From the NCBI GenBank assembly GCA_964646765.1, contig CAZYIA010000001.1:217339-272104 (forward strand): a DNA stretch of 54,766 bases, given 5' to 3'. The notes under the pieces are model-generated. The model saw only the letters and a program-made list of their open reading frames with translations, was not told where the DNA came from and did not search any database. The position numbers and the translations under genes are program-made. The stretch comes from an uncultured Candidatus Saccharibacteria bacterium (GTDB taxonomy: Bacteria; Patescibacteriota; Minisyncoccia; Phycocordibacterales; UBA9973). Below are positions 16,499 through 32,143 of this stretch, piece after piece. The first letter of the stretch is position 1; the number at the start of each line of letters is the position of its first letter.

Positions 16499-16531
16499 AA
16501 AAATAACTCCCATAAGGGAGTTTACATAAAG

Positions 16532-16623
16532 GTATCCTTCCCATTCGGGCTGGGATTAGCACCTTGCATTTGCAGGTTGCCGACGGGTCATTGAGCCAGA
16601 ACTCTCGCCGCACTCTTGATAAT
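16532..16623 (-). promoter_or_regulatory. SAM-I (S-box) riboswitch
   Basis: Minus strand TTATCAAGAG..GGCGAGAGTTCTGGCTCAATGACCC.TCGGCAACC-hairpin-AGGTGCTAAT.CCAG-hairpin-GGATA matches the SAM-I consensus; lies directly upstream of metK. Confidence 0.88.
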
Positions 16624-16658
16624 TGGCTTTAAAGCCAATAAAAAAGTACCATAAAAAA

Positions 16659-23452: not shown

Positions 23453-25123
23453 CTACAAAGTTAATCGAACCTTTCGTAATTCGTCGTATGGGATTTTACC
23501 ACCAAGAAGTTCATAGACTGGTCCGAGTAATCGCTTTCCACCTTCTTGAGTACCAATTTTTTGAAAAGCACTCGTAATTTTCTGTAACCTACTAGAGGAC
23601 ATACTTTCTCGAATCTTAAAAAATGAAATAGTTGGATCTTTTTCTTTCGATGTTTCTAAGTGATCAAGAATAGTTCCAACGGTTAATGAACGCTCCTTGG
23701 CAATAACCTCTATTGTCTTTCCTTCAAGAAACATTTCGAGGGTAATGTGAGCTGTTGGTTTTTTCTTTTCTCTGGTTCGAGCGCCATTTTCGTGAACAAA
23801 CCTATCTTCTAACTTCCTAAGCTCAGCCTTAGAGAGACTCTGGAGTTCCCTCACTGCCCTTTCTGACTGCCCACGAAATTCTACATCTTTTCCTTCTACC
23901 TCCTCATGAACTAAAAAAGCATTCGGGTGAAATCCTTTCAATGAAAGTCCTTCTAGACTTTTCACCCGTGAAAGTGCGACGTAACCCATACCACGCTCAA
24001 ATGGTGCTGAGAGATCAATTTCGGCTGCATCAAGAGTTAACCCTTGACTTTTATGTACTGTAATTGCCCAAGCAAGGCGTAAAGGATACTGAATAAGCTC
24101 GGCTTTTACTTTGCCGTTTTCTTCGATCGTAAATGAGGCTGGCTCAACATCAATTTTTGTTCCGTCAGTAAGTTCTACACAAATACCTTCATTTGAACAC
24201 GACGCCACTGTACCGGTAGTACCGTTTACATATCCTGCTTCAAAATTGTTTTTTACAAACATTACTCGCGCACCTTCTTTGAGCCGCAGTCTTTCCGGAG
24301 CCAAACAGCCTTTTTTGAGAGCAAGCACAAGAGCATCTGGCCCATGAGCACGCATGATGTACTCATGGACTTCGTTTTCAATATTCTCTAGTTCATCGTT
24401 ATTTTCTTCATTAACATTTATATTGAAAGCGTAAATTTTTGTCGGCATTTCTTCTTTGAGTGGAGCTCCAATCCGAGTTGTAAGAAGTGCGTGATGTGAT
24501 TCAGTTACTGCATTTTGCCGAATGGCATTTAAAATCTCTAAGTACGTTGTATCGTCTTGGCGAAACTGTTCTTCTAAATAGCAAACCACTGGATCAAGTT
24601 CTTTCCAGGCTTGCGAATGGTAGGCAAAATGTGAACTATTTTCTTCATCAAGCTGAATTATGTCTTGATCGTAATTTCTCTGTTTCGTTACCGGCGGCAG
24701 CTGGAAAAAGTCTCCTGAAAAAATAACCTGCATGCCACCAAATACCATTGGAATGCCTCGAAGCGCTCGTACCGCCCTATCGACCATATCAATTCGATAG
24801 TCATGAAGCATAGACACTTCATCAATAATTAACACTTGCGCCCCACGAACTTGATTGCGTAAATAAGATCGTTCAGCAAGTTCTTCTGCTTCAGAAAATG
24901 AAAGCGACTCGCGAATACCAATACCACTCCAAGCATGGATAGTAACGCCTCCAAGATGAGTAGCGGCGATACCCGTAGAAGCTGTAATGGCTACCGGAAT
25001 ACCCTTATCTCTAAGCCAGCCAATATATTGATTCAGTACATGAGTTTTACCACTTCCGGCGGCACCAGTAATAAAAGCACTCCGACCTGTTTTCAAAATA
25101 GTGAGTGCTTCTTCCTGAGTCAT
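23453..25123 (-). CDS. PIF1-like (RecD-type SF1B) DNA helicase with C-terminal helix-turn-helix
   Basis: ITGAAGSGKT, ASTGIAA, IIDEVSM, GDFFQLPPV, AWAITVHKSQG.TLD, YVALSR; start moved to MTQEEAL. Confidence 0.92.
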   Translation of the reverse strand: MTQEEALTILKTGRSAFITGAAGSGKTHVLNQYIGWLRDKGIPVAITASTGIAATHLGGVTIHAWSGIGIRESLSFSEAEELAERSYLRNQVRGAQVLIIDEVSMLHDYRIDMVDRAVRALRGIPMVFGGMQVIFSGDFFQLPPVTKQRNYDQDIIQLDEENSSHFAYHSQAWKELDPVVCYLEEQFRQDDTTYLEILNAIRQNAVTESHHALLTTRIGAPLKEEMPTKIYAFNINVNEENNDELENIENEVHEYIMRAHGPDALVLALKKGCLAPERLRLKEGARVMFVKNNFEAGYVNGTTGTVASCSNEGICVELTDGTKIDVEPASFTIEENGKVKAELIQYPLRLAWAITVHKSQGLTLDAAEIDLSAPFERGMGYVALSRVKSLEGLSLKGFHPNAFLVHEEVEGKDVEFRGQSERAVRELQSLSKAELRKLEDRFVHENGARTREKKKPTAHITLEMFLEGKTIEVIAKERSLTVGTILDHLETSKEKDPTISFFKIRESMSSSRLQKITSAFQKIGTQEGGKRLLGPVYELLGGKIPYDELRKVRLTL

Positions 25124-25175
25124 AGTCAGCAGATTGTAACATACTGAGGTAACGCAAAAATAAAATATTTGCACG

Positions 25176-25310
25176 AAAAAAACCGCGCTGATAGGTTCGC
25201 GGTTTCTCTCGTATGTAGGAGTTGTCGACCCTCCCTACACATGCCCGGGTGCATTGCTGCACTTTGGCTTAAATCGCTGTTTCCCACTTGCATGAGAAAT
25301 GGATCGACCT
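25176..25310 (-). ncRNA. Candidate structured sRNA with promoter and terminator (unassigned family)
   Basis: TATAAT at 25317-25322; two GCAA-capped hairpins; third hairpin with a possible 7-bp pseudoknot; terminator aaaccgcg/cgcggttt plus T7. Confidence 0.55.
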
Positions 25311-25371
25311 GCCAGTATTATAAATGATGGCAAGGATTGTGTGCCAGAGAATGGCTGTGGAAAAAGTACTT

Positions 25372-25806
25372 CTAGCGACGATATTTTTTAGTTCGCCACT
25401 TGTCTGCAATTTTTGCGCGCGTGAGTGATCGTTCGAGTTCGCTTTCGAAATGTTCGAAGTCTACAACTTCACCTCGCTCTTTTGCTGCTTCAAGTTCTTT
25501 CGCCTTTGCTTGTGCACGAGCTACAACCTCTTCAGATAATTCAGCTACGTGCTCAGCATAGTCGGCAAGAACTGCGACGGTATTATCTTTCACTTCGATA
25601 AAACCACCAACAACAGCCATCGGCACATACTCACCGCCGCTAACAGCAACGATATCACCAGATTTTAAGCTGGAAATAAGTGGAATATGATCAGGAAGTA
25701 CAGTAATTTCGCCTTCCATTGTTGGAAGTGTCACCTGATCAACGTCCTCTTCAAGGATAACTCGTTCAGGAGTAACAATTTTTAGATGTAATTTCTTCGT
25801 AGCCAT
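25372..25806 (-). CDS. atpC: F1Fo ATP synthase epsilon subunit
   Basis: LKIVTPER, LP..EGEI.VLPDH.PLIS.L..G, GGFIEV. Confidence 0.96.
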   Translation of the reverse strand: MATKKLHLKIVTPERVILEEDVDQVTLPTMEGEITVLPDHIPLISSLKSGDIVAVSGGEYVPMAVVGGFIEVKDNTVAVLADYAEHVAELSEEVVARAQAKAKELEAAKERGEVVDFEHFESELERSLTRAKIADKWRTKKYRR

Positions 25807-25810
25807 GAAT

Positions 25811-27172
<1,362 letters not shown>

Positions 27173-31813: not shown

Positions 31814-32069
31814 TGTTTGCTATTTGTTTTAATTCTTGGTCTTTGGAATATTTTTGTATTTCTCGAATAATACCGTAGCACGAGAGGAGGAACGCGATTC
31901 CAGTAGTAGCAACGAACGCCCACGGTTCTGTTCCCCACTTTCTATCCAAATATTTGCCAACAAAGAGAGCAAGAAGTATTGGACCAACGATCCACCCAGA
32001 TACTTTAGAGAACACAAGCATTGGCTCGTGCCACCAAATTCCAGAATCTTTTTTCTCCCCTTCTGGCAT
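31788..32069 (-). CDS. AtpZ/AtpI-like (ATPase gene 1) protein
   Basis: P.LL..F.G.YLD..WGT.PW motif; first gene of the operon; start moved to 32069 because the longer ORF runs through the tRNA. Confidence 0.85.
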   Translation of the reverse strand: MPEGEKKDSGIWWHEPMLVFSKVSGWIVGPILLALFVGKYLDRKWGTEPWAFVATTGIAFLLSCYGIIREIQKYSKDQELKQIANNGKHSNHN

Positions 32070-32143
32070 GGTGAGCGTGGAAGGAATCGGACCTTCGACC
32101 TCTGTCTTATCAGGACAGCGTTCTACCACTGAACTACACGCTC
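32069..32143 (-). tRNA. tRNA-Ile (anticodon GAU), CCA encoded
   Basis: Cloverleaf GAGCGTG-TA-GTTC/AGTGGTA/GAAC-G-CTGTC/CTGATAA/GACAG-AGGTC-GAAGG/TCCGATT/CCTTC-CACGCTC-A-CCA, 75 nt. Confidence 0.95.

Follow-up and report, generated by a model that had tools for sequence, protein, structure and literature searches.

A candidate small RNA gene of Paceibacteria located downstream of the atp operon

Results

A structured element ending in a terminator follows atpC

The window, that is, the whole stretch of 54,766 nucleotides analysed here, carries on its minus strand an element occupying positions 25176-25322, between atpC (ATP synthase epsilon, PF02823; 25372-25806, minus strand) and a gene identified by PF05970 as that of a Pif1-like helicase. 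The atpC stop at 25372 lies on the same strand, 62 nt before the predicted RNA start, and no terminator was found between this stop and the element in the window. The perfect TATAAT reported in the initial annotation was read directly in the sequence at 25317-25322 (minus strand), where it would form a -10 box 6 nt upstream of the likely start, A25310. With the U7 run of the terminator ending at 25176, the predicted RNA spans 25310-25176 on the minus strand, or ∼135 nt. The terminator was also called by a simple scanner, which omitted the promoter since no -35 hexamer satisfies its rule. The claim that the downstream helicase gene has its own -10 box after this terminator was confirmed: an extended -10 (TGT-TACAAT, 25133-25141, minus strand) lies 9 nt before the ATG at 25123. 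The helicase gene, which has no Shine-Dalgarno sequence, appears nearly leaderless and a separate unit. A small open reading frame at 25126-25293 (55 aa) was considered and rejected, as it begins within the loop of hairpin 1 and has no ATG in relatives.

The three hairpins and the U7 terminator initially described are all present on the minus strand. From the 5′ end, the predicted RNA consists of a terminal motif, AGGUCGAUCC (25301-25310), which is the first copy of the motif GGUCGA(C/U) discussed below; hairpin 1 (25280-25299), written UUUCUCAU-GCAA-GUGGGAAA, with an 8-bp stem and a GCAA tetraloop; the segment CGAUUU (25270-25275); hairpin 2, whose core GUGCA-GCAA-UGCAC (25249-25262) presents a second GCAA tetraloop; and hairpin 3 (25214-25239), UGUAGGGAG-GGUCGACAA-CUCCUACA with one bulged G, whose apical loop displays a second motif copy, GGUCGACAA (25222-25230). 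An outer GCC/GGC pairing extends hairpin 2 to GCC-AAA-GUGCA-GCAA-UGCAC-CCG-GGC (25243-25268); the energy-based fold is the sole support for hairpin 2. A terminator-like hairpin (25174-25211) completes the element, with an A-rich 5′ strand, a CCGCG/CGCGG stem, the loop AACCUAUCAG (25188-25197) and the U7 run.

The minimum-free-energy fold of 25170-25325 (minus strand) reaches -55.6 kcal/mol; the mean of 200 dinucleotide shuffles was -39.0 ± 3.7 (z = -4.49), and none of them was equally stable. It includes hairpins 1-3 and the terminator, and pairs the 5′ AGGUCG with CGAUUU (25275-25270), not with the loop of hairpin 3. This closing helix has an energetic basis alone and finds no comparative support; the sister clade described below closes by GAUCU/AGAUC, placed elsewhere, and that helix is invariant there.

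The element matches no Rfam family and has relatives of three lengths

Searching the window against Rfam 15 at gathering thresholds returned only a tRNA and a SAM riboswitch, both located elsewhere. At E ≤ 10 on 25050-25450, the best match was Thr_leader, with 18.5 bits against a cut-off of 55 and covering the terminator only. The element was likewise unmatched in 30 related loci, so that the initial impression of an RNA outside Rfam holds for both the window and these loci; no ribozyme or riboswitch family was among the matches on the element. BLAST of the element against 60 relatives and its own genome gave chance matches only, and neither nhmmer nor blastn found a match in 80 metagenomic atpC loci. 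An exact pattern, GGTCGACAA..CCTATC, matched 4 times in 400 genomes of the order, compared with 10 matches for a reversed-pattern control, and the single match inspected falls in coding sequence.

Relatives were recognised by motif. Two of the 80 metagenomic loci (L015 and L027) show the same arrangement directly after atpC and a TATAAT-like box, namely AGGTCGACAA, a spacer of ∼20 nt, then a hairpin with CCTATC in its loop. AGGTCGACAA and CCTATC are words found in the loops of hairpin 3 and of the terminator in the window, and we estimate the chance of both co-occurring at that position at ∼7e-6 per locus. A GTDB scan with the L015 atpC yielded 80 further loci, from Candidatus Nomurabacteria/Paceibacterota MAGs, of which 8 carry the element: seven in a short form of ∼65 nt and one (L102) in a long, window-like form. 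A total of 25 related sequences of short, medium and long form was found. MAFFT gave no structural register for long plus short forms or for the window plus L102, and model-based alignment was used.

The short form is a single-copy hairpin with covarying pairs

Nine short-form sequences align well, and RNAalifold predicts for them an 18-bp hairpin with an invariant G-CCUAU-C apex, 11 pairs of which show compensatory changes. Among 16 distinct short-form sequences, both sides change in 12/18 pairs. The fraction of cells paired is 89%, versus 72% in shuffles, with 0/500 shuffles reaching 89%; sliding the structure by 1-3 columns lowers it to 44-58%. Conservation of the short form exceeds that of its flanks (0.75 versus 0.56-0.62). 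The GGUCGA motif is displayed in a linear 5′ tail, and atpC lies upstream in 15/16 short-form loci.

A covariance model built from short forms (R1) found exactly one strong copy per genome, with 60-88 bits; the remaining matches scored ≤32 bits and resemble ordinary terminators. On 80 relatives of one carrier genome (G438), R1 detected one copy in each of the first-listed 16, presumably the nearest, and had no match at E ≤ 1e-5 in the other 64. Its score on the window was only 14.3 bits (E 1.5).

The long form occurs in the window and in a sister genus

Besides the window, a sister genus belonging to the same family has the ∼135-nt long form. An exact pattern search located it in 5 relatives of G439, the genome containing L102; these are first-listed and presumably nearest. 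The G439 atpC and atpD are 77% and 90% identical to those of the window. The five sister-clade long forms are 90% identical; their stem changes are compensatory (three pairs in hairpin 1, two in the terminator), and the few remaining differences sit in loops and linkers, the unpaired segments being highly conserved. Conservation of the long form was 0.90, versus 0.58-0.72 in its flanks.

A model built from the five sister-clade sequences, with the window left out (R2), aligns full-length to window positions 25310-25164 with 22 bits (E 1e-5 in 70 kb). In the long-form alignment to which the window was added by fitting to the model, and which spans two genera only, 5/9 pairs of hairpin 1, 7/8 of hairpin 3 and three of the terminator have changed on both sides. 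Hairpin 1 has a counterpart at the same place in the sister genus, with another stem and the same GCAA loop. Similarly, the hairpin 3 of the sister clade shows AGUCGACG in its loop over a wholly different stem. The loop of hairpin 3 keeps GUCGAC and that of the terminator keeps CCUAUC across the long forms. Hairpin 2 is an insertion in the model alignment and has no aligned counterpart in the relatives. Of the two GCAA tetraloops initially pointed out, that of hairpin 1 therefore recurs in the sister genus, whereas that of hairpin 2 does not.

Medium forms reveal a common plan

Forty relatives of the window's genome were searched with a further model (R3). It recovered a sister-clade copy in genome G017 with 150 bits. 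With stricter Infernal filters, detection in f1, the window's own family, was patchy: the element was confirmed in 5/25 genomes searched, including that of the window. Two of the sequences obtained are medium forms (L202 in genome G001 and L212 in G018), in which a -10 box and GGUCGA(U/A) are followed by a single hairpin and by a terminator whose loop reads UCCUAUC. A third (L203 in G012) is a variant located directly after atpC, which shows GUCGA in a hairpin loop. Together, they add three further genera of the same family. The medium forms retain the core with one GGUCGA copy and no GCAA hairpins.

Comparison of all forms defines a plan consisting of a single-stranded 5′ GGUCGA(C/U), a middle of 0-3 hairpins, an A-rich run, a long hairpin with a CCUAUC loop and a U tract. 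A -10 box, TATAAT or TATACT, is present in 25/25 members at a fixed distance from GGUCGA, with a spacing of 7 nt for the long forms and of 12 nt for most short forms; AGGUCGAUCC of the window agrees with the family range of 7-13 nt between the -10 box and GGUCGA(C/U). A U run follows the hairpin in 23/25 members. The 5′ GGUCGA(C/U) is invariant in both the short-form (A3/A5) and the long-form (A7/A10) alignments, and the CCUAUC loop is invariant in all members. Wherever the family models were searched genome-wide, one copy per genome was found, aside from weak matches to CCUAUC-loop terminators that we judged to be chance. The element is also single in the window's genome, where its terminator is the only terminator-like hairpin with a CCUAUC loop.

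These comparisons shift the emphasis of the first description. The GCAA loops and the pseudoknot had been given the most weight; both are confined to a lineage-specific middle module absent from the short and medium relatives. As judged from the alignments, the defining core is instead the 5′ GGUCGA(C/U) together with the CCUAUC loop of the hairpin that had been taken for a plain terminator.

We considered whether CCUAUC is a general habit of terminator loops in the window's genome. This idea was rejected, since 13 hairpins carry CCUAUC compared with a mean of 24 for permuted motifs, and one of the 13 is terminator-like. Two loci in relatives (L214 and L217, in G001 and G012) have CCUAUC-loop terminators after protein genes, a number within chance.

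The neighbourhood points to a free-standing gene after the atp operon

It had been suggested that homologues be sought downstream of atpC in relatives. They were found there, with conserved structure: atpC is upstream in all f1 family loci checked. A trhO-like rhodanese gene separates atpC from the RNA in the sister clade (L193, G439), and at the medium-form loci L202 and L212 the two are about as far apart as they are there. Close atpC relatives without the element end in ordinary terminators. The genes downstream differ among members and include metK with a SAM riboswitch, an ATP-cone/Mrr-like protein gene, MsrA, a convergent RecR and, in the window, the Pif1-like helicase gene.

That the element is a real, conserved RNA gene appears very probable. 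The initial proposal of a free-standing small RNA unit is supported by the conserved -10 box, the covarying stems and the variable downstream genes, to the extent that sequence comparison can establish it. We favour, with a probability of about 0.55, the reading that the window encodes a ∼135-nt small RNA with its own sigma-70-type promoter and Rho-independent terminator, which would be an expanded, long-form member of an unannotated family of ultra-small, Paceibacteria/Nomurabacteria-like bacteria placed after the atp operon, and which would act in trans as proposed below.

The main rival, clearly less probable, is that the element represents no more than the end of the atp operon, a structured 3′ UTR with an intrinsic, possibly bidirectional terminator protecting the mRNA, and that it has neither a separate transcript nor a function in trans. 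The terminator-free stretch from the atpC stop (25372) to the element agrees with this, as does the constant presence of atpC upstream (15/16 short-form loci and all f1 loci checked); moreover, the layout of A tract, hairpin and U tract is typical of bidirectional terminators, and the downstream gene is convergent at some loci. Such a 3′ end would however not account for a -10 box at a fixed distance in 25/25 members, and a trhO-like gene intervenes in the sister clade as well as in two further genera. Nor does a plain terminator need an invariant loop or a 5′ motif; the CCUAUC loop belongs to a single terminator-like hairpin of the genome, and close atpC relatives make do with ordinary terminators. 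The hairpin could mainly be the atp operon terminator. With no terminator separating atpC from the RNA, it is probably also where atp transcripts stop. A small RNA gene so placed would then resemble 3′-UTR small RNAs with their own internal promoter.

A pseudoknot is possible in the long forms and is not the core of the family

The loop of hairpin 3, GGUCGAC, had been proposed to pair over 7 bp with the 5′ GUCGAUC. On paper this pairing is possible, and an equivalent could form in 6/6 long forms (7 bp in the window, 6 bp in the sister clade). Both strands are conserved in 6/6 long forms and vary in none, and GUCGAC is a palindrome, hence any two copies can pair; covariation therefore speaks neither for nor against the pseudoknot. 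Because the shorter forms carry a single GUCGA copy, the pseudoknot cannot be the core of the family: the proposed pairing stands as a possibility for the long forms, but not as the mechanism common to the family.

This bears on the view that the long form is a compact tertiary fold, built from GNRA loops and the pseudoknot between the 5′ end and hairpin 3, which binds a ligand or cleaves itself. We regard it as unlikely. Each of the six long forms allows the pairing, two genera share the GCAA loop of hairpin 1 and the unpaired segments of the sister clade are highly conserved, as such a fold would suggest. Against it, the strands of the pseudoknot are invariant, without covariation, and palindromic copies of GUCGAC would pair in any combination; short and medium forms keep the core although they have one copy only and lack GCAA hairpins; conservation does not extend to hairpin 2; none of the ribozyme or riboswitch families matched; and the minimum-free-energy fold favours a local helix over the long-range pairing.

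The conserved palindrome could also act at the DNA level, GTCGAC being an operator or recognition site near the transcript start and the RNA incidental. In all forms a perfect 6-bp palindrome does lie at +2 to +13 of the predicted transcript. It is short, however, and its conserved flanks are asymmetric; the second copy in long forms always sits in the loop of a hairpin with a covarying stem, and the CCUAUC loop and covarying stems indicate selection on RNA. We consider this explanation improbable.

Still less probable is control of the Pif1-like helicase gene in cis, with the element as its leader or riboswitch acting via the terminator. A structured RNA with a terminator upstream of a co-oriented gene would have this appearance, but the helicase gene is served by a separate extended -10 that lies 9 nt ahead of the ATG, the element next to the RNA in two relatives is a SAM riboswitch, and the variation of the downstream gene among members, which is convergent in G439, leads us to exclude a leader or riboswitch function. 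Finally, a divergent housekeeping RNA missed by the Rfam models, such as SRP (4.5S) RNA, is barely credible: RF00169 and RF01854 have no match in the genome or in 18 related genomes and the short form is a single-copy long hairpin, but the domain IV motif (a GNRA loop with symmetric and asymmetric loops) is missing, the apical stem being continuous up to a CCUAU pentaloop, and with no SRP54-type GTPase in the genome and 30 relatives there would be no Ffh to bind.

Discussion

Proposed mode of action of the candidate small RNA

The invariance of two motifs exposed over freely changing stems suggests recognition of one conserved partner in trans, as by small RNAs with a 5′ seed. This mode of action is considerably less certain than the existence of a conserved RNA gene. 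The partner, whether RNA or protein, would be offered two motifs: GGUCGA(Y), displayed by the 5′ end and by the loop of hairpin 3, and CCUAUC, displayed by the loop of the terminator. Mutual pairing of the two GUCGA(Y) copies of the long form may mask or unmask the partner site.

Target searches returned no partner: extended sites complementary to the RNA were absent from its own genome, seed matches were not enriched at start codons in that genome, and the 5′ region of the short form paired no better with atp mRNA than shuffled seeds did. A protein partner is on this account as likely as an RNA partner. The region of hairpin 1 (25285-25302) is complementary at 16/18 positions to a conserved stretch of atpD (26335-26352) in the same operon, and at 17/18 to atpD of other genomes; since the sister-clade hairpin 1 is not complementary, this is probably due to chance.

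A tRNA-Ile(GAU) gene at 32069-32143 (minus strand) opens the atp operon; its anticodon loop is CUGAUAA and its T-loop, UCCGAUU, is unusual. UAUCAG in the terminator loop of the window is a 6-nt complement of this anticodon loop and shows the Ile codon AUC. A kissing interaction between the two was set aside, as UAUC alone is conserved in the family.

A more elaborate version, which we mention as a speculation with a small chance of being right, would make the RNA a self-gated, trans-acting core riboregulator of Paceibacteria, tied to the atp operon and with a body expanded in some lineages. The GUCGA(Y) copies of the long form would then form a switchable long-range helix that masks or exposes the binding motif, the GCAA loop of hairpin 1 helping to lock the fold. 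If true, such self-gating in trans would be found in organisms for which almost no RNA regulators are known.

Relation to known RNAs

RybB and OmrA/B are enterobacterial small RNAs with a conserved 5′-terminal seed and a terminator hairpin, and DapZ and MicL are 3′-UTR small RNAs that have their own internal promoter and share the terminator of the mRNA. The present family resembles the former in length (65-135 nt), in a conservation peak at the extreme 5′ end, in its variable body and in its Rho-independent terminator. It resembles the latter in its own predicted promoter and its location behind the last gene of an operon, with a hairpin at which the operon transcripts, too, can end. It differs from all of these in having no sequence relation to them, in the invariance of the terminator loop itself, which is unusual, and in that no target was found.

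The ATPC RNA motif, which lies between atp genes of cyanobacteria, is also a structured RNA linked to the atp operon. The window RNA, in contrast, follows atpC and has its own predicted promoter, and no atp-linked family was among the Rfam matches. As to the bacterial small SRP RNA (RF00169, ∼70-110 nt), the likeness is that of a single-copy long hairpin; the model match, the domain IV motif and an Ffh in the genome are all lacking. The HIV-1 DIS loop, GCGCGC, is a kissing-loop palindromic dimerisation element, and GUCGAC is similarly a 6-nt palindrome in a hairpin loop or free end, in principle able to pair with a second copy. Unlike the DIS, the motif of short forms is carried in a linear 5′ tail.

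We conclude that the family is a new one of an ordinary kind, that of bacterial small RNAs. To our knowledge, very few non-coding RNAs have been described for the candidate phyla radiation, and we know of none of these Paceibacteria in culture. Our literature search on SRP RNA and structured non-coding RNAs in CPR/Parcubacteria found no report bearing on the element. A single-copy family that is present throughout one clade, lies next to the atp operon and shows clear covariation and two invariant exposed motifs can be annotated, and groundwater metatranscriptomes can be searched for it. The three forms of the family also illustrate how hairpin modules can be added to a minimal small RNA.

Apparent absence of the SRP pathway and other observations

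No SRP54-type GTPase (PF00448; neither Ffh nor FtsY) was detected in the 98%-complete genome of the window, and 30 relatives from 13 families of the order gave only weak P-loop matches of ≤23.4 bits. SRP RNA, searched for with RF00169 and RF01854, was found neither in this genome nor in 18 related genomes. Judging from these searches, the SRP pathway seems to be absent from the genome and its relatives, and we found no report of such an absence in these organisms in the literature. If real, it would amount to a lineage-wide loss of a near-universal system, and this apparent absence in the order is possibly of wider interest than the RNA itself.

The assembly looks mixed. Contigs C1-C3 have a GC content of 0.42-0.43 (916 kb); C4 (169 kb) at 0.60, C9 at 0.69 and others, C5, C7, C8 and C10 among them, are far higher; the high-GC contigs are probably contaminants, which would explain the size of 1.34 Mb. 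Neither 515F nor the 1492 region, both conserved primer sites of 16S, is present in the assembly, which is therefore probably without a 16S gene.

Other features were noted in passing. At L214 (G001, contig C3, 31331-31473), a very basic open reading frame of 23 aa (MAKGNESRRKEVKKPKKDKAPKK) has a TATACT box of its own and finishes in a terminator with the loop UUCCUAUCG; this may be due to chance, or the locus may be another user of the loop motif. On contig C2 of the window's genome, near position 86104 of the minus strand, AGUCGAUC accompanies a hairpin (GAUCAAGCG/CGCUUGAUC) with a large loop containing AACCUAUCA. Lastly, in two relatives a SAM-I riboswitch and metK directly follow the small RNA (L177, 1606-1703; L203, 1663-1763), and the SAM riboswitch of the window lies at 16529-16625, 8.5 kb from the RNA; the order atp operon, small RNA, SAM riboswitch-metK may be ancestral.
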